A DNA stretch of 64,000 bases. Source: a virus (Duplodnaviria > Heunggongvirae > Uroviricota > Caudoviricetes). A program made the translations under genes and the position numbers. The DNA lies in the IMG/VR virus record IMGVR_UViG_3300032320_002688, positions 1 through 64,000 of that record; one strand, 5' to 3'. Positions 34,310 through 50,078 of this stretch are shown here, one piece after another. Each line of letters opens with the position of its first letter. Position 1 is the first letter of the stretch. A model generated the notes under the pieces. The model saw only the letters and a list, made by a program, of their open reading frames with translations, had not been told where the DNA came from and did not search any database.

Positions 34310-35956
34310 TTACATTCCTAAATTCATACCACCACCATTGTCATTTTTTTCATCTTTTTTCTCGAACACAACTGATTCTGTTGTTAAAATTGTTCCTGCT
34401 ACGGACGCTGCATTTTCGAGAGCAATACGTGTCACTTTTACAGGATCAAGTAAACCTTCATTTAACGCGTCGGCAACAGTATCTGTTTTAACATTAAATG
34501 TTGTAAAGTTGTTGCCTTCTGGATCTTGCTCAAATACGATATGAAGAATTTCATACCAGTTATCTTTACCAGCATTATCCATAATTTTCTTAAATGGTGC
34601 ATAACAAGCTTGTTTTACAATCTTGATACCCGAAATGATATCGGCGTTAGTGTCACCTATTTTTCCAAAGATATTATTAAACGCTTTAATCAACGAAACA
34701 CCACCACCAGGAACAATACCTTCAGCTAATGCTGCTTTTGTTGCGAATAAAGCATCTTCAACTCTATCTTTCTTTTCTTTAATTTCAATTTCGCTATTTC
34801 CACCAACTGAAACGATAGCAACACCACCAATTAATTTACCTAAACGCTCTTGTAATTTTTCTTTTTCAAAGAACGATTGTGCTTTATCAATTTGTGATTT
34901 AATTTCTTCGGCACGTGTAGAAATTGCTTCTTCAGTACCACCACCATCAATTACAGTAGTTTTATCTTTATTAACATTAACTGTTCTTGCTTTACCAAGA
35001 TATTGAGTGTATTGAGCAACAGGAATTTTATCTAATTTTAATCCTTTTTCTTTACTAATAACTTGACCACCTGTTACAGTAGCTAAATCTTCAAGGGCCA
35101 TTGTTCTACGTTCGCCAAAATCAGGTGCTTTAACAGCAATAACTTTAACGATACCTCTTGCTTTGTTAACGATTAATGTAGCTAATGCTTCACCATCAAT
35201 ATCTTCCGCAACAATTAATAATGATTTATTTTCAGCGCTTACTTTTTGTAATACTGGAAGCAATTCAGCAGCTGTTGTAATTCTACCGTCAAAAATTAAT
35301 ACATAAGCATCATCAATGATAGCTGACATTGTATTATTATCGGTAACAAAATAAGGTGATTTGTAACCACGCTCAAACTGCATACCCTCAACTACTTCAA
35401 GAGATGTTTCGCCTGATTTACTTTCTTCAATTGCAACTACGCCTTCACGGCCTACTTTTTCAAGAGCAGTAGCAATTAAATTACCAATTTCTTCATCATT
35501 ATTACCTGAAATGGTTGCTACAGCTTTAATGTGTTTTTCATCACTGATATCGAGAGCAAGTTTTTTAAGTTCATCAACTACTAACTTTACTGCTTTATCA
35601 ATACCTTTCTTTACTTCTACTGGGTTAGAACCTTGACCTAACAATTTAAGTCCTTCTTCTACCATTGTAGTAGCAAGTAATGTTGATGTTGTTGTACCAT
35701 CACCAGCTTCATTTGCTGATTTAATACTTACTTGTTTTACAAGTTGAGCTCCTAAATCTTCTACTTGGTCCTCTAATTCAGAAAATGCTTTAGCAACTGT
35801 AACACCATCTTTTGTTACTTTAAGTTCACCACTTGCATCTTTAATTAAAACTGTTCTACCACCTGGACCTAAAGTGGAAGAAACACTGTTATTCAACTTT
35901 TGAATACCAGCGAGTAATTTATTTTTTAAATCAATTCCATACGATGTTTCTACCAT
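34310..35956 (-). CDS. groEL: chaperonin GroEL (Cpn60)
   Basis: 548 aa; ATP-binding GDGTTT; C-terminal GGGMNLGM; full-length colinear with Hsp60. Confidence 0.95.
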   Translation of the reverse strand: MVETSYGIDLKNKLLAGIQKLNNSVSSTLGPGGRTVLIKDASGELKVTKDGVTVAKAFSELEDQVEDLGAQLVKQVSIKSANEAGDGTTTSTLLATTMVEEGLKLLGQGSNPVEVKKGIDKAVKLVVDELKKLALDISDEKHIKAVATISGNNDEEIGNLIATALEKVGREGVVAIEESKSGETSLEVVEGMQFERGYKSPYFVTDNNTMSAIIDDAYVLIFDGRITTAAELLPVLQKVSAENKSLLIVAEDIDGEALATLIVNKARGIVKVIAVKAPDFGERRTMALEDLATVTGGQVISKEKGLKLDKIPVAQYTQYLGKARTVNVNKDKTTVIDGGGTEEAISTRAEEIKSQIDKAQSFFEKEKLQERLGKLIGGVAIVSVGGNSEIEIKEKKDRVEDALFATKAALAEGIVPGGGVSLIKAFNNIFGKIGDTNADIISGIKIVKQACYAPFKKIMDNAGKDNWYEILHIVFEQDPEGNNFTTFNVKTDTVADALNEGLLDPVKVTRIALENAASVAGTILTTESVVFEKKDEKNDNGGGMNLGM

Positions 35957-35960
35957 GTTA

Positions 35961-36248
35961 TTAGTTTTTAATAATTCCTAAAATATCATTCTCTTTACAA
36001 ATAAAATAATCTTGTCCTTCAACGCTAATTTTCATTGCGCCTAATTTTGGGATAAGTACTTTATCTCCTACTTTTAATTCTGTTTGTTTCCAAACGCCCA
36101 TATTCCAGTTAAAAGTATCGCTTACTGCAGCTACTTCACCGATTTCGGGTCTTTCTTTTCCCAAATCCGGGATAATAATGTTTCCTACCATCTGTTCTGT
36201 TTCTTCTACAGGGGTAAGGATAATGTGTCCATTTAAGGGTTGTATCAT
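35961..36248 (-). CDS. groES: co-chaperonin GroES (Cpn10)
   Basis: 95 aa, 4 nt upstream of groEL; ILGII C-terminal pattern and mobile-loop region. Confidence 0.85.
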   Translation of the reverse strand: MIQPLNGHIILTPVEETEQMVGNIIIPDLGKERPEIGEVAAVSDTFNWNMGVWKQTELKVGDKVLIPKLGAMKISVEGQDYFICKENDILGIIKN

Positions 36249-36294
36249 AATTTTTCGTTTTTTTAAATATAAGTAAAATAATTTAAATAACCAA

Positions 36295-36310
36295 AGAGGG
36301 CGCTAACTCT
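36295..36310 (-). promoter_or_regulatory. GC-rich motif AGAGGGCGCTAACTCT upstream of groES-groEL
   Basis: shares the core AGGGCGCTAAC with 36777..36792 (there on the opposite strand, as GGTTAGCGCCCTAAGG). Confidence 0.35.
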
Positions 36311-36313
36311 TGA

Positions 36314-36730
36314 TTACTTAATAGCCAACACTTTAGGTTTGGCTTGTTCCGCGAATGGAATAGAAATTAATAATAAACCATTATCCATTTGGGCATCACC
36401 ATTTTGAAGATCAAAACGCGATGAAATTTTATAACCTAGATTAAATGAACGACGAGCAATACCCTTATGGATATAGTTAGTTATGTCGATTTCATTTTCT
36501 CCATCTTTTTCATATGTAACTCGTAAGATATCTCCTTCGATGTTAATATTAACATCTTCTTTAGATAATCCAGTGCATGCAATTTCAAAATGCAAGCCTT
36601 CTTTTGTTTCGTAAATGTCTACGGGGTGTGAAATTTTGGTCTCCAGTGCTGGAGCGAAGAATGAGTCGTTGTTGAAGAAATTCTTGAACAAGACATCGAA
36701 TGGGTCTGTGTGTGTTTTCAATAGTGTCAT
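36314..36730 (-). CDS. small heat-shock protein (Hsp20/alpha-crystallin family)
   Basis: 138 aa; alpha-crystallin domain; C-terminal I-x-I-type ISIPF. Confidence 0.75.
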   Translation of the reverse strand: MTLLKTHTDPFDVLFKNFFNNDSFFAPALETKISHPVDIYETKEGLHFEIACTGLSKEDVNINIEGDILRVTYEKDGENEIDITNYIHKGIARRSFNLGYKISSRFDLQNGDAQMDNGLLLISIPFAEQAKPKVLAIK

Positions 36731-37890: not shown

Positions 37891-40497
37891 TTAGCTAATA
37901 ACAAAAAATTTGTTGGCATACTCGTTAAGAGATGGAAAAGACCATTTTAAATCATCATACACGCCCTGCAGTTTATTCAGGAACGTTGAGTCGAATGTTT
38001 TTTCTTTATCAACATACTTCTCGATGAACTCCATTATTTCTGGTGGGTCATCAACTCCATAGAATCCTATACAATCAAGTCGATATGGATTATCTTTTAA
38101 ATACACATAGTATATTTTTTCAAATTCCTTAATTGTTGGATATTTTTTATCTAATTTTTTAAATCGTAATAAATCGTTGTAGTAAATAGCTGCTTTAGTA
38201 TTAATCGGAGCTTTAGATTTTAAGTCACTAAATATCTTAGATGCTGTAGGTCCACGCTCAATATATTCTCTAATTTTCTTAACTCCAGTTGGTTTAGCAA
38301 TTTCAACTATTTCTCGACCAGCAATACTTTTCTTGAATGATGATATTAGTAAATCAATTTCTTTCTTTTGTTTACCGAACATGATTTGTTGAATTAAGTT
38401 CTCACCAAATTTTCTAAATAATGGAGGGAAATTTGATTTCATCAAATCTAATCCTTTGATATCTAATTCTTCGGTTGTGACACCCTCTTTATTAATAATG
38501 TATTGGGCATAACGTCTTTTACCTGCAAAATAACCTCTTTCAAGTATCACCTCTTGTTTTAATTCAAAATAATGATCATCCTGAATATTAAATAAATCAC
38601 GAACGTGTTTATTAAGATATTTGTTAATTTGTTTTTGGTAATCACTTGCTACTTCTAATATTTTAGCAATGCGAGCATCTCTATCATTAACATCTAAATC
38701 AGGCCATCTGTATCTTACAACATCACCTACTCTAATAAACATTGAATCGGTATCACTTGTAATTACATAATCAACATCTTCAGTTCCAATTTCAGTATTA
38801 ATCATTCGATTCATTTCTAAGATTGATTCTTTGATTAATCGTTGTCCTGTTAATGTAATGGCGTTTGAAATGACTTTATATCCGTCTGTATATCTCCATC
38901 CGTTTTGGGCAAAACACCCGTAAACGTCATTTAACTTAATTTTAAACGCATGTTGTCGTTTATTATAAAACTCACCTAATACAGGATCCTTCTTTACTTT
39001 ATAAGCATCCTTCATCATGTTTTTATATTCAACACGTTTATCAAACCAATCTGATAATACATCACAAACAACACTTCGTTTATCACTCCTAAACAACCCA
39101 CCACTAGCGGCAATTGTAAGTTTATTTTTTTCAATCATTTCGATTAACTTACTTGCTGTAATTTGAGTTACTTGACGTTTAGGATTTTCAATAGTTACTT
39201 TCTCACTTGGTCTAAGTGCTTTTAAATCCATTAACGTCCAATTACTATCATATTTATCTCTTATTTTAACATTACCAACTAATGTTTCTACTCCCATATT
39301 CAATGAACGAATAATAGATGGGTATAGTGAGGTAAAGTCAAGATCAATTACATCGCTATATAAGCCAGGAATAGGATCTTTTAAATAACCACCAGCATAT
39401 TCATCCCCAATTGTTAAACGCAATTCTGGGTTCATTGTTGTTGGTTTGTTATTAGAAACAATACCCTGACGTTTTAGGTAAGTCAAGATAGCTCCTTCAT
39501 TTAACATTGTCGACCAGTAGATATTCTCATACGGCACGTGACACAAATGACAAATGTTGAGTGTTAATTCTATAAATTGGAGTTTTTTATCTAACTCAAT
39601 TAGAATTTCAACGTCACGAATGTTATAATCGATGAATTTAGCTTTATCTTCCTTAAATAATTTATCTAAACTAACTTCATACTTAATTTTACCTAAATTA
39701 ACATATTTTTCTCCAATATCACCTAATTTATAAGATGGTTCTTGTTTAGTAATATATTTTTTAAATAAATTAAAGTAGTCTAAGTGATTAATACCGGCAA
39801 TGTCAACATAGTCTTTACTCATTTTTTGAGATTCAACTGTAGTAACAGCTCCGTATTGATTTAAATTACCTATAATTCCTAATGGGGATAATCGTTTTGC
39901 TGTGTTGTGATCAAACACTTTCAGCATTCTAAAATATAAATAAGGAATATCAAAAAATTCACTATTCCATCCTACAACAATTGTAGGTTCAAGTTCTTCC
40001 CATTTGTCTAAGAATTTTAACAACAATTCTTTTTCAGTATAGCACGCAATAATGCTTCTACCATTTTCTTCAAACGATTCCATAGATTTAGATTCGTCAA
40101 GAATATAACAAATTGTTTGTTGAGTGGATTTGTCATATAGAGCAATTGAAGTAATTTTAGTTGGAGAATTTTTAATATTCTCAGGAGTTAATGCACCACC
40201 AATTTCACACTCAATATCTAAAAATACTATATTATGCCATTTAGGTGGCTCGTCTTCATGTAAATAACTTTCTATTAATACACGAGTCTCATTAGGAATA
40301 TCTACTTCATAGTTTTCCTTAGAGTATTTGTAAGTAGGAGATACTTTTTTACCATCTAAAGTAACAAACTCACCATTTGGGTTTGGTTGGTAGTAAGTGG
40401 GTCTATAATCAAATGAAACCCAACCCTCGTTATCATCTTTAAGGTGGACAGTTTTAGCATAGTTCTCCCCTTGCTGGATGTAAATGGCTTGATACAT
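37891..40497 (-). CDS. family-B DNA polymerase with 3'-5' exonuclease
   Basis: Exo I FLDIECE; motif A DLDFTSLYPSII; motif C ITSDTDSMF; KxxxNSxYG-type motif B region. Confidence 0.9.
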   Translation of the reverse strand: MYQAIYIQQGENYAKTVHLKDDNEGWVSFDYRPTYYQPNPNGEFVTLDGKKVSPTYKYSKENYEVDIPNETRVLIESYLHEDEPPKWHNIVFLDIECEIGGALTPENIKNSPTKITSIALYDKSTQQTICYILDESKSMESFEENGRSIIACYTEKELLLKFLDKWEELEPTIVVGWNSEFFDIPYLYFRMLKVFDHNTAKRLSPLGIIGNLNQYGAVTTVESQKMSKDYVDIAGINHLDYFNLFKKYITKQEPSYKLGDIGEKYVNLGKIKYEVSLDKLFKEDKAKFIDYNIRDVEILIELDKKLQFIELTLNICHLCHVPYENIYWSTMLNEGAILTYLKRQGIVSNNKPTTMNPELRLTIGDEYAGGYLKDPIPGLYSDVIDLDFTSLYPSIIRSLNMGVETLVGNVKIRDKYDSNWTLMDLKALRPSEKVTIENPKRQVTQITASKLIEMIEKNKLTIAASGGLFRSDKRSVVCDVLSDWFDKRVEYKNMMKDAYKVKKDPVLGEFYNKRQHAFKIKLNDVYGCFAQNGWRYTDGYKVISNAITLTGQRLIKESILEMNRMINTEIGTEDVDYVITSDTDSMFIRVGDVVRYRWPDLDVNDRDARIAKILEVASDYQKQINKYLNKHVRDLFNIQDDHYFELKQEVILERGYFAGKRRYAQYIINKEGVTTEELDIKGLDLMKSNFPPLFRKFGENLIQQIMFGKQKKEIDLLISSFKKSIAGREIVEIAKPTGVKKIREYIERGPTASKIFSDLKSKAPINTKAAIYYNDLLRFKKLDKKYPTIKEFEKIYYVYLKDNPYRLDCIGFYGVDDPPEIMEFIEKYVDKEKTFDSTFLNKLQGVYDDLKWSFPSLNEYANKFFVIS

Positions 40498-41906: not shown

Positions 41907-42440
41907 TTATCCTTGTCTTTGTTTGTCATTCTGCCACTGCCCATCATATAATTCAGCAGGATCACATTCATGGAAATATATTTGCGCTACTCTAGCGTCT
42001 TCTTCAATAAAAATAGTTTCTGTTACTAACATAATTGTTCCCATGTTATCTGTTTCAAAACCAGGATCAAATACTGGAGAATTAATTAATGTACCATTTC
42101 TCCACATTGATGAACGTTGCTTAATGAATGCTACACGATTAGCAGGTATTCTACAACCTTCGTTAAAGGTAATATCATAAGTACCTTCATGTAACAACCA
42201 TCCTGTTCTACCATCCAAGTTTAATTTATCAACAGGAGTATAATCAGCTAGTTCTGTTTTTTCTTTTAATACTTTTCCAATTCTACCTGTTTTTTCTAAT
42301 GTTACAGGATCAATTTGAGGATTATATCCTACTTTATTTACTGCTTTAAGGGTAATATCAAAACCAACTTGTGCTGGTTTACCCTTAGCATTATCTAATT
42401 TAAGGAGTCCTTCTCCTAATATTTGTTGTACGTTTAACAT
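41907..42440 (-). CDS. dCTP deaminase/dUTPase-family protein
   Basis: 177 aa; beta-rich dUTPase-like pattern GFDITL...GRTGWLLHEG...IMLV. Confidence 0.5.
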   Translation of the reverse strand: MLNVQQILGEGLLKLDNAKGKPAQVGFDITLKAVNKVGYNPQIDPVTLEKTGRIGKVLKEKTELADYTPVDKLNLDGRTGWLLHEGTYDITFNEGCRIPANRVAFIKQRSSMWRNGTLINSPVFDPGFETDNMGTIMLVTETIFIEEDARVAQIYFHECDPAELYDGQWQNDKQRQG

Positions 42441-42591: not shown

Positions 42592-43005
42592 TTACTTTCT
42601 TTCTCTTGCATAATCTTGTATTGTTTTTGAATCTGCTCTTTCCCATGGATATACTATCCAATCTTTATCTACTACTTCGTAATGGAATGTTGGTTGTACA
42701 GATGCAGTTTCTTTTGTGTGGATTGTTGCTGTTGTGATGACATTATACTTCTGTAATGTTCCCCCAGAATCGCAGATATCATCTACTATTAATACTTTAT
42801 TATTTAAGACCATTCCAGGCCTAAACAATGGAATGTCTAATTTATGAGATAACATTACAGCAGGTATTAATCCTCCTCTAGGCATTCCAAATATATATTG
42901 AATATCTAACCCACTGGATATTACTTGAGATGCTATATTATCTACAGCAGTCTCAATATAATCCCAGGTAATAAATCTTTTGTTCATATTAGAATTTTGT
43001 TCCAT
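42592..43005 (-). CDS. gpt: xanthine-guanine phosphoribosyltransferase-like (type I PRTase)
   Basis: FITWDYIE, PRGGLIPAVMLSHKL, VLIVDDICDSGGTL, WIVYPWE align with E. coli Gpt IVTWDML / SRGGLVPGALLAREL / IDDLVDTGGT / WIEQPWD. Confidence 0.7.
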   Translation of the reverse strand: MEQNSNMNKRFITWDYIETAVDNIASQVISSGLDIQYIFGMPRGGLIPAVMLSHKLDIPLFRPGMVLNNKVLIVDDICDSGGTLQKYNVITTATIHTKETASVQPTFHYEVVDKDWIVYPWERADSKTIQDYARERK

Positions 43006-43621
43006 TTACTTCAATCGCGTGTAAGAATTCTTCTCTAATTAAATTATCTTTTTCCATAAACACACCACTAAATTTGTTTGTAGTCATTGTTGATGGGTGT
43101 TTAATACCTCTATGTGAGCAACATGTGTGCTTACAAGCAATACTAACGGCTACTGATGGGCAATCCATTTTAGTAGATAAGTAATCATGAATTTGTTGTG
43201 TTAATGATTCTTGCATTTGTGGACGGCGACTAAACCATTCTACAATACGATTTAATTTACTTAAACCAATAACGTTTTCACCGGGCACATAAGCTAATGT
43301 AGCAAATCCAGTAAATGCTAAGTTGTGGTGTGCACACATACTAACAATAGGAATACCTGATTGGATAACTAATCCATTATAACCATCATCATTAGGAAAT
43401 ACTGTAATGTTAGGTTCGTCTGTAATACTGCCTACAATTAAATCTTTTAACCATGCTTTAGCTACACGACGAGGTGTATCTTCAGTTTGTCTATCAGCTG
43501 TGTAGTCAAATCCTACAGCATTAAGGAAATCACCATATGCTTTAGCTGCTTTATCAATCATTTTTTCTACCTCTTTAGGTGTACGAGATAGACTACCATT
43601 TGATTTTTTTAATAATTCCAT
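42989..43621 (-). CDS. folE: GTP cyclohydrolase I
   Basis: MCAHHNLAFTG...VIGLSKLNRIVEWFSRRPQMQESLTQQI matches FolE CEHHLVPF...VIGLSKIARIV..AQRPQVQERLT. Confidence 0.9.
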   Translation of the reverse strand: MELLKKSNGSLSRTPKEVEKMIDKAAKAYGDFLNAVGFDYTADRQTEDTPRRVAKAWLKDLIVGSITDEPNITVFPNDDGYNGLVIQSGIPIVSMCAHHNLAFTGFATLAYVPGENVIGLSKLNRIVEWFSRRPQMQESLTQQIHDYLSTKMDCPSVAVSIACKHTCCSHRGIKHPSTMTTNKFSGVFMEKDNLIREEFLHAIEVNGTKF

Positions 43622-44176: not shown

Positions 44177-45016
44177 CTATACGTTTAAGGTTTTATTCCA
44201 AGCTGCAATATGTAATCTTGTAAGACCACGGAAACGATACTTCTTAGCCATTTCAAGACAGAATCTAGTGCGCTCTTCAAAATTAGAAGCATCATCTAAA
44301 CCTGGCATACAAACAACGTTTTTAAGCGGTATATTAAATGGTTCTACGAAGTCACGGAATAATTCCAATACATCGTCTTCAGTGCTAATAACGAACTTAA
44401 ATTGATAGTTTTTATGTAGTTTAATACGCTCAATCGCTTCTGGATTAATACGTTGTTTTTCTGTCATACCTGAATTAGCTAATTTAGGTGAACAGTTAAT
44501 TTGATCTAACATATTAAATAACTTAACATCTATCACTATTGTACCATTAGTTTCAATTTCATAGAATGGTTTAACATTATTAACGTCAAGATATCTTGAC
44601 ATCCAGTAATTAGTAAAATTAACAATTGCTTCTTGATGACCTTTAATTGTTGGTTCACCACCTGTCCAAATAATATGAACTAAACCATTTTTAATATCTT
44701 CATATACACCCTCTTCTTTCCAACGATTAATTAAATAATCAAAATCTTTATCTTCACCTCTCCACAACCATTGACTAGTACTATCACAAGTCCAGGTTGC
44801 TTTACCTTCTAATTCTAAATCACCTTTGAATATTTCACCATCTTCTAATGATGCTTCTTTCATTAACTGGTTAGTAAATGCTCTACTCATACCGCAGGTT
44901 AGGTTACAAATACCTAAACGAACGAAGTACGATGGGATACCAGATGATATACCTTCGCCTTGAATGCTATAAAAATCACTACTAATAAGTAGTTTATTTG
45001 AATCTATTTTACTCAT
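44177..45016 (-). CDS. queE: 7-carboxy-7-deazaguanine synthase (radical SAM), atypical Cys spacing
   Basis: FSIQGEGISSGIPSYFVRLGICNLTC, HIIWTGGEPT, YEIETNGT align with E. coli QueE; the third cluster Cys appears displaced to WTCDSTSQW (compare CDTKHTW). Confidence 0.75.
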   Translation of the reverse strand: MSKIDSNKLLISSDFYSIQGEGISSGIPSYFVRLGICNLTCGMSRAFTNQLMKEASLEDGEIFKGDLELEGKATWTCDSTSQWLWRGEDKDFDYLINRWKEEGVYEDIKNGLVHIIWTGGEPTIKGHQEAIVNFTNYWMSRYLDVNNVKPFYEIETNGTIVIDVKLFNMLDQINCSPKLANSGMTEKQRINPEAIERIKLHKNYQFKFVISTEDDVLELFRDFVEPFNIPLKNVVCMPGLDDASNFEERTRFCLEMAKKYRFRGLTRLHIAAWNKTLNV

Positions 45017-45875
45017 TTACTTGTGTTGTTTTATGTTCTGATAATACTTTTTCTACGTGTGATTTAGCTACTTCCCAACTTACAGGACCTGTTTCGTCAG
45101 CATATGCTACTGGGTCAGGACGTCCTAATTTGATAAATGCTTCAATACGCTCTACTGATGCTGCTGATTTATAATCACTAAACCATTCTTCGTATTGAAA
45201 ACCTAGGTTATCGTAAATTAATAATTTAATTGGTTTATAAGATGTATTTGTACGCTTATATACCTCATTAAAATCAAGACCTAAGATATCACAAGATCTT
45301 TGCCCGTCCTCTAAGATGTCAAATTTATTAACTTCAAGATATGGAGTATAATGGTATACTAATTCTGAATCCCAGTTACCAATCTTAAAGGCTTCCATGT
45401 CTGCATCTCTAAATTCTTGACGGCAGTCAGGATAAATTGCATGATCACCAGCATGGATACCCATTGCAATAGCAACATCTCTTTTTTCCAATTGACCATC
45501 ACCTAAATCTTTAGTTGCAATTGATAATGCTACTGCTTGAATCAATGATGAAAAAATTTTATTACGATTAGGCACAACTGTTTCTTTCATATTGTCTTGC
45601 TCGTAATGTCCTTCTGGAACATCATTACCCCCAGTTACTAAAGCAGAGTTTAATAATTGAGATAAACCATCTAGTTTGATAATTTGATGTGTTACAGGTT
45701 GATTGTTTTCTTTTAGATATTGTACTAATGATGTAGCACGTTCTAATTCTACTTTGTGTTTTTGACCATAGTCAAAACCTAATGCTGTTACTTCGTAGCC
45801 ATTGGCTAACAGGTGTAACAATAATGAACTTGAATCCATCCCACCTGACAAACTTAAAACTGCTTGTTTTTTCAT
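45009..45875 (-). CDS. queC: 7-cyano-7-deazaguanine synthase-like, no canonical Zn-Cys cluster
   Basis: AVLSLSGGMDSS PP-loop, FDYGQKH, YPDCRQEF align with QueC; C-terminal CxxC...CxxC zinc site not found; protein 288 aa versus about 230. Confidence 0.75.
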   Translation of the reverse strand: MKKQAVLSLSGGMDSSSLLLHLLANGYEVTALGFDYGQKHKVELERATSLVQYLKENNQPVTHQIIKLDGLSQLLNSALVTGGNDVPEGHYEQDNMKETVVPNRNKIFSSLIQAVALSIATKDLGDGQLEKRDVAIAMGIHAGDHAIYPDCRQEFRDADMEAFKIGNWDSELVYHYTPYLEVNKFDILEDGQRSCDILGLDFNEVYKRTNTSYKPIKLLIYDNLGFQYEEWFSDYKSAASVERIEAFIKLGRPDPVAYADETGPVSWEVAKSHVEKVLSEHKTTQVNE

Positions 45876-46072: not shown

Positions 46073-46867
46073 TTATTTAATGTAACTTTTAAATTTATTT
46101 ACATTAAAGGTAATATCTTCTATTCGCTCTTCCAAGTTCATTTCGAAATAATGTTCTAATTTATTTGCTGGTTTGAAATCAATCCCATTATCAGCATAAC
46201 GAACACCCTCGGCTCCAACTAATATTGGATTAGATGTATCTACTGATTTAATAAATTTCCAATCACTATAAGACATAAATTCTTGAGGCAATGAACAACC
46301 TAATAAATGATGGTACAATGTTTTTCTAATAGTACCAGACTCAACTAAGCGTCTGATGAACTCCATTCTACCATGCATTGATGCTTTTAATGGCAGTAAA
46401 TCAGCAACTATTGGATACATTTCTTGATAGGCAACACTAGAATGATTAAATGCAATATGTGTATAACCTAAATCAACTAATGTTTGATATGTTGTAACTA
46501 ACTCACCTATATCTTGTCCTTGGCATACTGCCATTAAATTAACACCCTCAGGTAAATGTTGTTTATAATTAATCATCCAACTTTTAGCATTTCTAATTGT
46601 TGCTGACGAATCATTCCATTCATCTGGGACAATAAAAACATCAGGACGAATTAAATGGATTTTTTCAATTAAATCTTCTGTTGTATGAGTTACTCCTTCA
46701 AATAAACCATTATCCATAATAATAAAGCGTTTATCTGAACGAGATTGCTCGAAAAATGTTCTGTATTGAATATACTTATCAATTAAATGAGGAAGACAAT
46801 AATCATAGTCATTCCATTGATATGCGTTTTGCATTAAGCTAAGAGGTAACTCATGACTTACTTTCAT
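46073..46867 (-). CDS. dpdA: tRNA-guanine transglycosylase-fold protein, DpdA-like
   Basis: IIMDNGLFEGV resembles the TGT nucleophile motif (L/M)TDSGG(F/Y)Q; size and position within the queCDE-folE cluster. Confidence 0.45.
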   Translation of the reverse strand: MKVSHELPLSLMQNAYQWNDYDYCLPHLIDKYIQYRTFFEQSRSDKRFIIMDNGLFEGVTHTTEDLIEKIHLIRPDVFIVPDEWNDSSATIRNAKSWMINYKQHLPEGVNLMAVCQGQDIGELVTTYQTLVDLGYTHIAFNHSSVAYQEMYPIVADLLPLKASMHGRMEFIRRLVESGTIRKTLYHHLLGCSLPQEFMSYSDWKFIKSVDTSNPILVGAEGVRYADNGIDFKPANKLEHYFEMNLEERIEDITFNVNKFKSYIK

Positions 46868-47084
46868 ACTTATGTAATTTTTTAGTTAATTTATCTATTT
46901 GAAGTTGACAAAACCATTTACCCATATTACCAGAGGCATTGTTATATTTTTCCTTCCATTCATTTATTTTTTTATGAATAGGAGCATTAGCTTTATTAAG
47001 TATATCAATGTCGTAATAGCTATTATTTTCTAACATTGGATCATTATTATCCTTCATATATAGCGCTGTTTCTTTCATTCTCAA
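46851..47084 (-). CDS. hypothetical protein
   Basis: 77-aa ORF. Confidence 0.35.
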   Translation of the reverse strand: MRMKETALYMKDNNDPMLENNSYYDIDILNKANAPIHKKINEWKEKYNNASGNMGKWFCQLQIDKLTKKLHKYESKS

Positions 47085-47514
47085 AAAATTCTACTTGTAC
47101 TATTTTAACTCTACCATTTGTTTCTTCTTGTACAAATGTATTTAGTTTTTCATAAATGAATTTAGCAAATTGTTCTGCACCAACAGGACCTTCTAATAAT
47201 CTAAGTTGAACAATACCTTTCTTATCCATTTCCTTAAATAATTCTACTTCAGGATCATCTGGTGCTATAACAGTAGTATGATCGAACATGTAGTCCATCC
47301 ATTGTTTAGCATTCATACCGTCAATGGTAGTTTTTGCTCGTTTCATTCCTCCAAAGTCCCAAACCCAATTTCTGTGGTCTAATTCTCCTTCAAATGTTAC
47401 TTTAAATTCAATGTCATATCCGTGTAGGAACTTACAATGTGTTCCCTCAGCAGCCCATTGACGAAAAACAGTACTAAAACCATTAAATAATTTTGTTGAT
47501 TGAAATTTACTCAT
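47047..47514 (-). CDS. queD: 6-carboxy-5,6,7,8-tetrahydropterin synthase-like
   Basis: EGTHCKFLHGYD corresponds to the QueD CxxxHGH region (here HGY); DFGGMK and FDHTT blocks. Confidence 0.65.
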   Translation of the reverse strand: MSKFQSTKLFNGFSTVFRQWAAEGTHCKFLHGYDIEFKVTFEGELDHRNWVWDFGGMKRAKTTIDGMNAKQWMDYMFDHTTVIAPDDPEVELFKEMDKKGIVQLRLLEGPVGAEQFAKFIYEKLNTFVQEETNGRVKIVQVEFFENERNSAIYEG

Positions 47515-48031
47515 ATGTTATTTTTTTAGGTCTACCTCTTTTTTTACCAAAATTATTAAAATCAGGTACGGGGTGACGTTTTACTTGATATTTTTCTTGT
47601 AATTGAATATACAACTCCTCTAGTGTACCATCAAAATCAGATGCTATTTCTTCTACTGTTTCTTTAGGTAATCTAAGTGTTCGTTTACATTCTTTATAAA
47701 ATCCTTCTAAACGTTCAGGTTCGTCTTTTTCAAAATCCTTCATCAAACGTCTATGACGTTCTCTAAATAATGTTTGTGCTTCATGTCGTGAAGAAGGATG
47801 GGTGATATGTCCTGTTTTTTCTTCCATTTCTAACAAGGCGTATTGTGCTTGCCAGTAATAATGAGAAAAATCAAAATCACCATTACGAATTTTATCTACA
47901 GCATAAGCATACTTAGATAATTCTTTTTGTTTAGATCTAAATTTTCTCCACCAAAAAAATTGATTGTAATTAAGACGTTGTAACTTATTTACTTCACGTA
48001 AAATTGTTTCTTTGCTGTGTGTAATTGACAT
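47507..48031 (-). CDS. hypothetical protein with C-terminal AT-hook
   Basis: 174 aa; C-terminus GKKRGRPKK (RGRP AT-hook core). Confidence 0.45.
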   Translation of the reverse strand: MSITHSKETILREVNKLQRLNYNQFFWWRKFRSKQKELSKYAYAVDKIRNGDFDFSHYYWQAQYALLEMEEKTGHITHPSSRHEAQTLFRERHRRLMKDFEKDEPERLEGFYKECKRTLRLPKETVEEIASDFDGTLEELYIQLQEKYQVKRHPVPDFNNFGKKRGRPKKITYE

Positions 48032-48034
48032 AAC

Positions 48035-48226
48035 CTATTTATTTGGCGTAAATTTAAGTATCTTTTCTGAGATAACCACCCTTCCCTTAGTATGTTTTGG
48101 TTCGTAAGGACAATGTCGACATCCATTACCGCAACATTGGCCGCGTCTAATGTGAGCGAGCGCTGTGAATATCACGCGCTCGCCTTCTATATAGTAATCA
48201 ACTTTATTTGTGAGTTCTTTACTCAT
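48035..48226 (-). CDS. Cys-rich mini-protein
   Basis: 63 aa; QCCGNGCRHCPY. Confidence 0.4.
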   Translation of the reverse strand: MSKELTNKVDYYIEGERVIFTALAHIRRGQCCGNGCRHCPYEPKHTKGRVVISEKILKFTPNK

Positions 48227-48227
48227 A

Positions 48228-50078
48228 TTACACTATTTCACAAGCGCCTCCAGCACACGCTACTTGATCCATTAACGCTGTATCATCAGTATATTCAACG
48301 ATTTTACTTAAATCAATATTGTGGAGATGCTGAGCCATTTCTTCAAATTGTTCTTCAGTAATGTCTTCAAAGGGAGCTTGTTTATATGTACCTCCAAAAT
48401 AAGGTAATACTGATAAACCATTAAATGTTTCTTTATTTTCCCACATCCACTTACCTACTTTTTCCCATTCATGTTCTTGAATTGATACTGTAGCAGATAC
48501 GTTGTTTGTGTTAGCACCTTTTCTATGTCCTTTTTTAACCCATTGTGTATTAAATTTCTTAACACGTTCAAGCATATCCATTACATCTTCAGTTCTTAAA
48601 ATAGAACCTACTGGTGCTTTTTGTGGTACAGAAATTACAGCTTGAATTGTTGGTTTGAAGAAATCATCTTCAACTAATTCAGGGTGATTACTAGCTAAGT
48701 GAGAATATATAGCTTCGTTTTTACCTACACGAATACGTCTAATATAAAAATCATTGTGCCAAGCATGAATACCACTTGATGTACCTAATACTAATGATGA
48801 AGTACCTGATGGTTTAACTGTTGTTACACGAGCAGCTTTATTTACACCTATAATTTCAGCAACACGAGCGTTTTCTGTTTTAGCTAAATCAGCTGCTTTT
48901 TTCAAGTCATAAGCTAATATAGTTCCAGAACCAATACCTGTCATACCAACGCCTAATAAAGCGTCTTTTTCGGTTGTTTTACGCCATACATCTCTTAAGT
49001 AATGGAAATCAGTGTATGCTGCTTGTAATGTACCAATAAAGGCACCTACACGTACTCTTTCGTTTAAGTCTTCTTGTGATTCAACATTTGAAACGTTTAC
49101 TTCACATAAGTTACAGAACTGATAAGAACGTAAAGCAATTTCACAACATGGGTTTGTACCCCAATCTTTATCATTTGAAAAGTAAATTCCAGGTTCGCCT
49201 GAATTGCTTAATTCAATTTTCTTCCATAATTTAAAGAATTCTTCTTCATCAATTTTATGACGAATAACAACTGCAGAGTTATTTGCTCTACCACGTTGTG
49301 GATTCTCTTCCCACCAATTACCAAATTTACATGTTAACATTTCTTCATCATCTAAGTTGAATAATGAAATTAATGCTGCACGTCTAATACCACCACTTAA
49401 TACGGCATCAGCAATATGACAAGCCATATCATGAGCATCTAATGGGGTTAATCTATCACCATTTTTCTTTCTGTCAAGTACTTTTTGTAAGTTAAATAAA
49501 CATTCTTTTAATGGTTCAGGACCAGGTGCTTTACCACCTACAGTGATTAATTGAGCACCTTTTGGTCTAATATCTCTAAAATCAAATAGAGGTAATGGAG
49601 CTCCTGTAAAATATGCTTTACAAAGCATTCTAACAGCATCAGCCCATCCTTCAATAGAATCACCAATTAGATATCTTTTTGATTTAATAGGTATTTTAAT
49701 TTCTGGCAATTGCTCAATATGATGTCTTTGAACACTATATCCAACTCCACATCCACTCAACAACAAAAACATTATTTCGCTGAATGAACGCCAATCATCA
49801 ATAGGTAAAAAAGAACAATTAAATATACGAGCATTATTAAGTTCAATGGGTTTGCCCGCGAACTGTAAGCTACGCATTGATGGTAATACTTTTTTATCGT
49901 AGACCAATTTATAAGCTTCTTCGATTTCATCTTTTAATTTAGGAAATTTTGTTTGATGCATTTCCTTATTTCTTGTTACTAATTCTTCCCATGTTTCTCT
50001 TCTGTTCAGTGTGGGAACAAACTTTGCATACTTCATGTATGTAGTTATGTCACTGAGGATACCTTGCGTTACGTCCAT
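48228..50078 (-). CDS. ribonucleotide reductase catalytic subunit (probably class II, B12-dependent)
   Basis: 616 aa; RNR active-site Cys region NCSFLP; C-terminal redox tail CAGGACEIV; no ATP cone and no small subunit seen in the window. Confidence 0.8.
   Translation of the reverse strand: MDVTQGILSDITTYMKYAKFVPTLNRRETWEELVTRNKEMHQTKFPKLKDEIEEAYKLVYDKKVLPSMRSLQFAGKPIELNNARIFNCSFLPIDDWRSFSEIMFLLLSGCGVGYSVQRHHIEQLPEIKIPIKSKRYLIGDSIEGWADAVRMLCKAYFTGAPLPLFDFRDIRPKGAQLITVGGKAPGPEPLKECLFNLQKVLDRKKNGDRLTPLDAHDMACHIADAVLSGGIRRAALISLFNLDDEEMLTCKFGNWWEENPQRGRANNSAVVIRHKIDEEEFFKLWKKIELSNSGEPGIYFSNDKDWGTNPCCEIALRSYQFCNLCEVNVSNVESQEDLNERVRVGAFIGTLQAAYTDFHYLRDVWRKTTEKDALLGVGMTGIGSGTILAYDLKKAADLAKTENARVAEIIGVNKAARVTTVKPSGTSSLVLGTSSGIHAWHNDFYIRRIRVGKNEAIYSHLASNHPELVEDDFFKPTIQAVISVPQKAPVGSILRTEDVMDMLERVKKFNTQWVKKGHRKGANTNNVSATVSIQEHEWEKVGKWMWENKETFNGLSVLPYFGGTYKQAPFEDITEEQFEEMAQHLHNIDLSKIVEYTDDTALMDQVACAGGACEIV

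Follow-up and report, generated by a model that had tools for sequence, protein, structure and literature searches.

Introduction

Canonical QueC (EC 6.3.4.20), represented by the proteins of Escherichia coli (P0AG67), Bacillus subtilis (3BL5), and Pectobacterium (2PG3) in 'cluster 1' of PF06508, has a Rossmann/PP-loop fold. QueC is described as a zinc-binding protein, and its cysteine motif is considered one of its two hallmarks (PMC13329287, PMC5699537). The QueC signature also includes YxQxHxxE, VPxRN, YPDC, K165, and Y189, and mutagenesis of the E. coli protein showed that Y35, R99, Y131, and Y189 are essential (PMC13329287). In phages, the DpdA3 family of DNA transglycosylases is associated with complete replacement of guanine (PMC10516641). 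Campylobacter phages CP220 and CPt10 reportedly have DNA with 100% dADG, the deoxynucleoside of 7-amido-7-deazaguanine (ADG; as cited in PMC8306585 and PMC10516641), and a protein named 'QueC*' was proposed as the ADG synthase of Campylobacter phages (PMC10516641). The DNA of Flavobacterium phage immuto, whose corresponding protein is named simply 'QueC', contains 345,000 fdPreQ1 per 10^6 nucleotides and no dADG, and the authors report complete guanine replacement (PMC10516641, Table 1). Here, we analyze a QueC homolog encoded in a 64,000-nucleotide stretch of Caudoviricetes phage DNA (positions 1 to 64,000 of IMG/VR record IMGVR_UViG_3300032320_002688, hereafter the window), in which all four zinc-binding cysteines are replaced. 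Its sequence and relatives suggest that this protein is probably a zinc-independent, competent synthase of preQ0 (7-cyano-7-deazaguanine) that feeds DpdA3-mediated DNA modification. No account of a QueC that lacks these cysteines or works independently of zinc was found in the searchable literature; its coverage is incomplete, so an earlier description may exist elsewhere. The cysteine-free QueC appears to be new; the pathway itself is already known, and no new pathway is proposed.

A QueC protein without the zinc-site cysteines

The QueC homolog of the window matches the Pfam QueC family (PF06508, E = 3.6e-36, 125.1 bits against a cutoff of 22), with the match restricted to profile positions 1-185 of 210, and PHROG 1550 'QueC-like' (1.2e-37). 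An AlphaFold2 model calculated from a 75-sequence alignment (mean predicted local distance difference test score, pLDDT, 77.5; predicted template modeling score 0.79) has QueC structures 3bl5 and 2pg3 as its best PDB matches in Foldseek, which is consistent with the same Rossmann/PP-loop fold. We aligned the protein by MAFFT with QueC from E. coli, Mycobacterium phage Rosebush, Cellulophaga phage phi38:2, and Campylobacter phage CP20 (alignment A1), and a larger alignment was also made. The window protein is 29% identical to E. coli QueC and 37% identical to QueC of Rosebush, a dPreQ0 phage. It shares with canonical QueC the SGGxDS, YxQxHxxE, VPxRN, and YPDC motifs, the counterparts of K165 and Y189, the arginine after the zinc motif, and the clustering with queD, queE, and folE genes. 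The PP-loop and every residue found essential in E. coli QueC (Y35, R99, Y131, and Y189) are present. There is no room for the N-terminal class-II glutamine amidotransferase domain of Gat-QueC, as the sole Pfam match above the gathering score is QueC itself, starting at residue 4 of 288. The initial annotation had recognized a QueC homolog with a conserved PP-loop (SGGMDSS) and central blocks, and both the Pfam match and the alignments agree with it. In function, the window protein is probably a QueC, with all defining features found except the zinc motif.

The protein contains only two cysteines, C151 in the YPDC motif and C195, so a single cysteine lies in the last 110 residues. The E. coli zinc ligands C188, C197, C200, and C203 align with S212, D234, S237, and S240 in A1 and in the larger alignment, and S(x)21DxxSxxS stands in place of the zinc motif C(x)8CxxCxxC. 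The missing zinc site and the lone C-terminal cysteine had been noticed in the initial annotation, whose span 45009-45500 covers residues ~126-288, and the alignment now assigns a residue to each ligand position. We note that the phmmer alignment to PDB sequences covers only residues 2-187 and ends short of the zinc positions, which were placed by MAFFT with Cys4 (four-cysteine) relatives sharing the same tail. The register of the zinc site is secure because of its conserved flanks: Y213 (E. coli Y189) follows the first position, R243 in 'VER' follows the fourth, and the window segment SDYKSAASVERIEAF...PDPVAYAD pairs with HCGRCGTCVERAEAF...PDPTEYAD of Rosebush in a gap-free alignment, with 'EAF...DP..YAD' common to both.

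The window QueC is 288 residues long, compared with 231 in E. coli and 219 in B. subtilis, which confirms the excess of about 60 residues noted before. The initial annotation had attributed this excess to a C-terminal extension. The tail is indeed longer, but in A1 the ~57 extra residues are dispersed over a 12-residue insertion, a 20-residue insertion, ~20 tail residues, and a few small indels, and there is no single extension. In the AlphaFold2 model, the 20-residue insertion between zinc positions 1 and 2 forms two strands (residues 216-221 and 227-234); the window protein has ~13 residues more than E. coli QueC in this region. The start of the tail (EAF...DP..YAD) is also found in Rosebush QueC and in the Cys4 relatives P0131 and P0136. 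As the tail is common to cysteine-containing relatives, it is unrelated to the loss of the zinc site.

Conservation of the replacement pattern

The pattern 'S...SDYKSAAS-VER' is found in 119 of the 120 closest database homologs (76-100% identical), with serine at position 1 in 119 of them, and S-Y-D-S-S-R is found in all 99 homologs from IMG/VR viral loci. As the replacement is kept in nearly all homologs, it reflects neither chance nor decay. A decaying or inactive QueC remnant in a phage that depends on host preQ0 would account for the lost hallmark motif, and we consider this hardly credible. The reading frame is intact, with its stop codon overlapping the start of the QueE-like gene; the mean column identity is 70% over 75 homologs; at least 598 IMG/VR stretches encode a relative; and the catalytic residues are all invariant. 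Some close homologs also carry inteins, which usually occupy conserved sites of essential proteins. Among the representatives, an intein was found in homologs P0123, P0135, P0139, and P0166, Cys-less and Cys4 alike (Pfam Intein_splicing; one with LAGLIDADG). It interrupts the protein around residues ~143-150, immediately ahead of the active-site motif YPDC.

An exhaustive HMMER search of 1.84 billion cluster representatives (50% identity), followed by alignment, separates the Cys-less proteins into two subclades. Subclade A (SYD[ST]SR), which includes the window protein, immuto QueC, P0121, and P0123-126, carries S-Y-D-S/T-S-R and the hairpin insertion. Subclade B (SY.[ST]DR), which includes P0130, P0132, P0139, P0144, P0146, and P0153, carries S-Y-x-S/T-D-R and the canonical 8-residue loop, and its position 2 is variable (S, E, P, I, H, or N). 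Exactly one carboxylate is present at the former ligand positions in both subclades, as the aspartate at position 2 in A and at position 4 in B. The Cys4 relatives immediately outside both subclades, P0131 (55% identical) and P0136, share with them the 'P after Y' and the tail start ER.EAF...DP..Y. All full-length members have SGGxDS, YGQxHxxE, V[PE]NRN, and the counterparts of K184, Y213, and R243, together with a motif that resembles YPDC and varies slightly. Across these alignments, the S/D/S/S QueC is a conserved and ancient variant.

The single retained carboxylate, with serine or threonine at the other positions, suggests a shared center. One interpretation is that the set of three serines and one aspartate is a binding site for a hard cation, namely Mg2+, Ca2+, or Na+, or a weak site for Zn2+, in which case the enzyme would be metal-swapped rather than metal-free and its preQ0 chemistry unchanged. 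We regard such a metal swap as unlikely, although it deserves serious consideration: the variable position 2 of subclade B leaves only three conserved ligands, and a hydrogen-bond cluster accounts for the same pattern.

Phage relatives and the amide intermediate

The initial annotation had linked altered QueC variants to a stop at the amide intermediate, and had suggested that the phage might install dADG or a further derivative. In a stronger form, loss of the zinc site would cripple the second, dehydrating half-reaction, so that the enzyme releases ADG. Several observations are compatible with such an arrest: ADG is a true QueC intermediate (PMC13329287); tblastn and profile hidden Markov models (HMMs) detected no QueF in the window; the DpdA3 of the window shows 35% identity to its homolog in the dADG phage CP220 and is as close to it as to immuto DpdA3; and 'QueC*' has been proposed as an ADG synthase in Campylobacter phages (PMC10516641).

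We ran the check suggested in the initial annotation, an alignment with QueC from dADG- and dPreQ0-group phages. Phage CP20 belongs to the species Firehammervirus CPt10, and its QueC, which has the canonical length of 219 residues and is ~33% identical to the window protein, retains C-x-C-xx-C-xx-C (SCYKGGNKPCNVCPTC). The dPreQ0 phage Rosebush retains the four cysteines as well. CP20 QueC departs from the signature elsewhere, with YGSNHQ..E and FPDC, whereas the window protein lacks the four cysteines and has the canonical YGQKH..E and YPDC. As a QueC of the dADG group keeps its zinc site, cysteine loss is not the feature associated with dADG. The Firehammervirus phages (CP220, CPt10, and CP20) resemble the window phage in combining a QueC homolog with a DpdA3; complete guanine replacement would be a further shared trait.

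Immuto, the closest cultured relative, has a QueC with 60% identity to that of the window and with the same S/D/S/S residues, hairpin insertion, and tail; it shares the FolE, QueD, phosphoribosyltransferase, and DpdA3 cluster, and its genome is ~160 kb. Immuto also encodes QueF and the formyltransferase DpdN, neither of which is found in the window, and the subtypes of QueE (no tblastn match) and DpdA3 (33% identity) differ between the two phages. As immuto DNA carries a preQ1 derivative, it needs the nitrile preQ0 as the substrate of QueF.

The same association was observed in IMG/VR. We took the first 163 viral loci, of which the best 83 hold close relatives of the window QueC. Type I loci, which resemble the window, have the layout QueD-DpdA-QueC-QueE-FolE-(PRT)-dUTPase-like (PRT, phosphoribosyltransferase) without QueF. 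Type II loci, with the layout QueD-QueE-QueC-DpdA'-QueF-DpdN-TMK-FolE and a QueC 73-80% identical to that of the window, account for 26 of the best 83, and 16 further QueF-anchored loci hold a Cys-less QueC. Altogether, 42 of the first 163 loci carry an S/D/S/S QueC and, no more than 10 kb away, QueF. In a second, more divergent viral set, QueF linkage was found for 17 of 71 SYDSSR proteins and for four of six subclade-B proteins; this set was obtained with an alignment query, since a single-protein scan with the subclade-B member P0144 yielded only three viral loci. No alignment column separates 48 type I QueCs from 42 QueCs of QueF-containing loci at the 90% level, and QueF-linked and QueF-less QueCs are interleaved in a neighbor-joining tree. 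In these comparisons, the QueF-less QueC shows no sequence sign of altered chemistry.

The retained cysteines in CP20, the fdPreQ1 DNA of immuto, the linkage to QueF, the lack of a discriminating column, and the cellular clusters with genes of the preQ0 pathway (see below) leave the proposed stop at the amide unsupported, and with it the prediction of dADG or a derivative in the phage DNA. We consider an arrest at ADG very unlikely. As separate observations, the DpdA3 proteins of type I and type II loci (L008-L090) are only ~30% identical, which suggests that the DpdA3 subtype co-varies with the inserted base. The window DpdA3 is ~30-35% identical to all other types and is uninformative as a predictor of substrate.

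Cellular carriers

A scan of one genome per GTDB species shows that the variant also occurs in cells. At the four ligand positions, 78 of the 80 best loci are fully Cys-less, and the other two keep a single cysteine. Subclade A proteins, 55-61% identical to the window QueC, were found in cultured Cysteiniphilum spp., Fastidiosibacter lacustris, Facilibium subflavum, Caedibacter taeniospiralis, and Thiotrichales isolates, and on a complete Legionella sp. chromosome. Subclade B is carried by Marine Group II/III archaea, Verrucomicrobiota, Pirellulaceae, and Entotheonella. In Cysteiniphilum litorale, queC is divergent from queD-queE and lies between ispD/mscS and a DUF2797 gene. In a Poseidoniaceae metagenome-assembled genome (MAG), the arrangement is FolE-QueE-QueC::MsrB-QueD near ribosomal protein S19e. 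Among the 80 loci, QueE is found near QueC in 68, QueD in 58, FolE in 42, and QueF in 13. These loci look like chromosomal preQ0-pathway clusters feeding queuosine or archaeosine, both of which need preQ0.

Two observations on the carriers stand apart. The Marine Group II Cys-less QueC can be fused to a C-terminal MsrB (SelR/MsrB) domain (locus L300, 7986-9155; P0130), and many GTDB matches in this group are 360-430 residues long; the fusion may be a sign that QueC is connected with oxidative stress. Some short MAG contigs are probably mis-binned phage DNA. One of them is a 6.8-kb contig (L254) binned as 'Sediminibacterium sp.' (Bacteroidota); its QueC shares 76% identity with the window protein, and the contig may point to the host group.

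A probable zinc-independent preQ0 synthase

These comparisons favor a mechanism in which the zinc of canonical QueC is structural and not catalytic. The Zn(Cys)4 site of the canonical enzyme would staple the C-terminal helical subdomain, which carries the residues equivalent to Y213 and R243 at the edge of the active site. In the window protein, the polar residues S212, D234, S237, and S240 may hold the same subdomain without zinc, through a hydrogen-bond cluster or a hard-metal site, and the subclade A hairpin may reinforce this hold. The Cys-less QueC would then run both ATP-dependent (adenylation-dependent) steps, from 7-carboxy-7-deazaguanine (CDG) to ADG and from ADG to preQ0, consuming 2 ATP and NH3. 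In the window phage, FolE, QueD, QueE, and QueC would successively make preQ0 from GTP, and the DpdA3-family transglycosylase would exchange guanine in the phage DNA for the QueC product.

The window contains the DpdA3-family transglycosylase, FolE, QueD, and QueE of the phage 7-deazaguanine DNA-modification system; the preQ1 branch (QueF with DpdN or DpdM) is not represented in its 64 kb. QueF and DpdN gave no tblastn match in the window, and the best E-values of six-frame profile HMM searches were 0.94 and 0.42, respectively. As neither was found there, dPreQ0 is the likeliest DNA base. This is the least certain step, since genes of the cluster without an assigned role could act on preQ0, and we lean only slightly towards dPreQ0 as the base in the window phage.

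Several points weigh against a zinc-independent preQ0 synthase in the window phage. The function of the Cys-less QueC rests on genomic association and the DNA chemistry of one phage, and another QueC, of the canonical kind, could be present in the host of immuto and in the cellular carriers. QueC has been stated to need zinc for its function (PMC13329287). The genome to which the window belongs is estimated at ~155-183 kb from the longest IMG/VR relatives, and a distant QueF or another modifying enzyme may lie elsewhere in it. The window DpdA3 is a distinct subtype, ~30% identical to QueF-linked DpdA3s and 35% to that of CP220. Finally, the window QueC scores 125.1 bits against the NCBIfam equivalog TIGR00364, below the trusted cutoff of 150.3. 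The same cutoff is missed by the Cys-less QueCs of Cysteiniphilum (119.5) and Poseidoniaceae (131.1) and likewise by the Cys4-retaining QueC of CP20 (140.3 bits). As CP20 QueC falls below the cutoff despite its four cysteines, a score under the cutoff is not peculiar to proteins that lack the C-terminal motif.

The low equivalog score could also indicate a repurposed QueC paralog, either a deazaguanylase of the Cap9/QatC type or a ligase joining CDG to some amine besides ammonia; its product would be a new 7-carboxamide derivative and not preQ0. On several occasions, the QueC scaffold was adopted for another purpose (PMC13329287), and the cluster contains several small conserved open reading frames (ORFs) without known function together with a 174-residue protein. 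However, the full canonical substrate and catalytic signature is kept, unlike in QatC; no CD-NTase, QatA, QatB, or QatD is found among the neighbors; the gene is tightly embedded among FolE, QueD, QueE, and DpdA; and its orthologs occur in cellular preQ0-pathway clusters and next to QueF. Cap9 and QatC share the PF06508 fold, and Cap9 keeps a QueC-like core, but both keep Cys-rich zinc motifs and sit in CBASS (cyclic oligonucleotide-based antiphage signaling system; type IV) or Qat operons, whereas the neighbors in the window are QueE, DpdA3, QueD, FolE, a phosphoribosyltransferase, and ribonucleotide reductase. We consider a repurposed paralog highly improbable. As a related point, DpdL was rejected as an identity of QueC, since DpdL is a paralog of QueD and not of QueC.

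Returning to the zinc-independent preQ0 synthase, the two subclades extend it beyond the window. We find it rather probable that they represent a widespread zinc-independent QueC isoform, in which the Cys4 knuckle is replaced by 'one carboxylate plus hydroxyls' in two permutations, and which is the working preQ0 synthase of abundant aquatic phages of ~155-183 kb, of Marine Group II/III archaea (often as MsrB fusions), and of Fastidiosibacteraceae- and Legionella-type bacteria. The same idea underlies the zinc-independent isozymes FolE2 (GCYH-IB), the C-minus ribosomal proteins, and DksA2, in which cysteine ligands are lost and function is kept. These are usually Zur-regulated paralogs that coexist with the zinc form, whereas the Cys-less QueC appears to be the QueC of its pathway cluster. 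FolE2 has a different fold subtype, whereas the Cys-less QueC keeps the same fold with substituted ligands.

A large natural Cys-less clade in preQ0, queuosine/archaeosine-type, and phage DNA-modification clusters argues for a structural role of the zinc in QueC. If the isoform is as widespread as suggested, the 'hallmark' zinc would be purely structural and dispensable, and the Cys-less form may be adaptive where zinc is scarce or where Cys-Zn sites are damaged by oxidation in sunlit waters. The clade offers a ready-made system for probing the role of zinc. As Cys-less QueCs fall below the NCBI equivalog cutoff, 'no QueC' may be wrongly reported for Marine Group II archaea, Fastidiosibacteraceae, and many phages. 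Loss of the cysteine cluster should not be taken as a dADG signature; the informative features for the phage DNA base are the DpdA3 subtype and whether QueF and DpdN are encoded. QueF-less type I clusters, including that of the window, are candidates for fully dPreQ0-substituted genomes.

Gene cluster of the window

The window is AT-rich (30-34% GC), and 70 of its 72 ORFs of at least 100 residues are on one strand. The queC gene is co-directional (minus strand) with the neighboring genes for FolE, QueD, the QueE-like protein, and DpdA3 (Table 1). Its linkage to queD and queE is present: QueD is encoded 1.2 kb upstream, FolE 1.4 kb downstream, and the QueE-like start overlaps the QueC stop by 8 nucleotides. 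A megablast search with the 6.2-kb cluster gave no match among GenBank phages.

Table 1 Features of the QueC homolog and its neighborhood in the window
Feature	Position in the window	Strand	Evidence or remark
QueC homolog, cysteine-free (without zinc site), subclade A	45009-45875	-	288 aa + stop; Pfam, PHROG, Foldseek of AlphaFold2 model
PP-loop SGGMDSS, ATP pyrophosphatase motif, residues 10-16	45828-45848	-	Invariant in alignments A1-A3
YGQKHKVE (YxQxHxxE catalytic motif), residues 36-43	45747-45770	-	E. coli Y35 essential
VPNRN (VPxRN motif), residues 101-105	45561-45575	-	E. coli R99 essential
12-aa insertion KDLGDGQLEKRD, residues 122-133	45477-45512	-	Not in E. coli, Rosebush, or CP20 QueC (A1); AlphaFold2 blocks 111-140 mean pLDDT 83-87
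YPDC substrate-pocket motif, residues 148-151	45423-45434	-	E. coli Y131 essential
K184, equivalent to E. coli K165, conserved	45324-45326	-	Invariant column in A1 and A3
S212-Y213	45237-45242	-	S212 at first zinc cysteine (E. coli C188); Y213 equivalent to essential E. coli Y189
20-residue insertion KPIKLLIYDNLGFQYEEWFS between zinc positions 1 and 2, residues 214-233	45177-45236	-	Predicted beta-hairpin; subclade A only
DYKSAASVER, residues 234-243	45147-45176	-	Zinc cysteines 2-4 replaced by D234, S237, and S240, with R243 as the conserved Arg that follows; Rosebush QueC has HCGRCGTCVER at the aligned positions
C-terminal tail, residues 244-288	45012-45146	-	EAF..G.PDP..YAD, predicted small hairpin and terminal helix; AlphaFold2 mean pLDDT 88-91 (blocks 251-280)
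QueE-like radical S-adenosylmethionine CDG synthase, predicted supplier of QueC substrate	44177-45016	-	PHROG 2076 'QueE-like' 1.7e-37; weak NCBIfam QueE matches
DpdA3-family DNA guanine transglycosylase, predicted user of QueC product	46073-46867	-	tblastn identities to immuto and CP220
QueD (6-carboxy-tetrahydropterin, CPH4, synthase)	47047-47514	-	Pfam PTPS 2.6e-15; 69% identical to immuto QueD
FolE (GTP cyclohydrolase I)	42989-43621	-	Pfam 1.5e-47
XPRT-like (xanthine/guanine-type) phosphoribosyltransferase, 137 aa	42592-43005	-	Pfam Pribosyltran; NCBIfam XPRT 2.5e-13, below cutoff; 48% identical to phosphoribosyltransferase of immuto cluster
dUTPase/dCTP-deaminase-like protein, cluster end	41907-42440	-	NCBIfam dUTPase PRK02253, 81 bits, below cutoff
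Family-B DNA polymerase	37891-40497
Ribonucleotide reductase	48228-50078		Pfam matches come from the syntenic gene in L008/L009
DUF5522, small Cys-rich protein	48035-48226	-
174-aa protein without family match	47507-48031	-

By tblastn, with at least 90% of the length aligned, the window DpdA3 shows 33% identity to immuto DpdA3 and 35% identity to its CP220 homolog. The QueE-like protein gave no Pfam match at E < 0.05, and its cluster motif, CNLTC-(35 aa)-CDS, is unusual: the pattern is C-x3-C-x35-C and neither C-x3-C-x2-C nor C-x14-C-x2-C. In 63 of 63 relatives the spacing is likewise 35 residues, and immuto QueE has C-x3-C-x7-C. The window QueD reads CKFLHGY (CxxxHGY) where the QueD signature is CxxxHGH, with a tyrosine at the second motif histidine, which is a zinc ligand (PMC10516641). 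Immuto QueD carries the same substitution (CSFLHGY). The assignment of the window QueD as DpdL was rejected, as it has CxxxHGY and not the LxxxHRHxF of DpdL.

The XPRT/HGPRT-like phosphoribosyltransferase inside the cluster, which immuto shares, might turn a 7-deazaguanine base into a nucleotide. Such a role would bear on how DpdA3 phages reach 100% guanine replacement. The dUTPase/dCTP-deaminase-like gene is conserved in most type I and type II relatives, and no homolog was found in the two immuto stretches searched. The DUF5522 protein and the 174-residue ORF sit between ribonucleotide reductase and QueD, and this synteny is kept in two relatives of 176-178 kb (L008 and L009). Downstream of the DNA polymerase, at 34310-36730 on the minus strand, HSP20, GroES, and GroEL are predicted by synteny with the same two relatives (ORFs of 138 and 548 residues), and a phage-encoded chaperonin set is also annotated in immuto.

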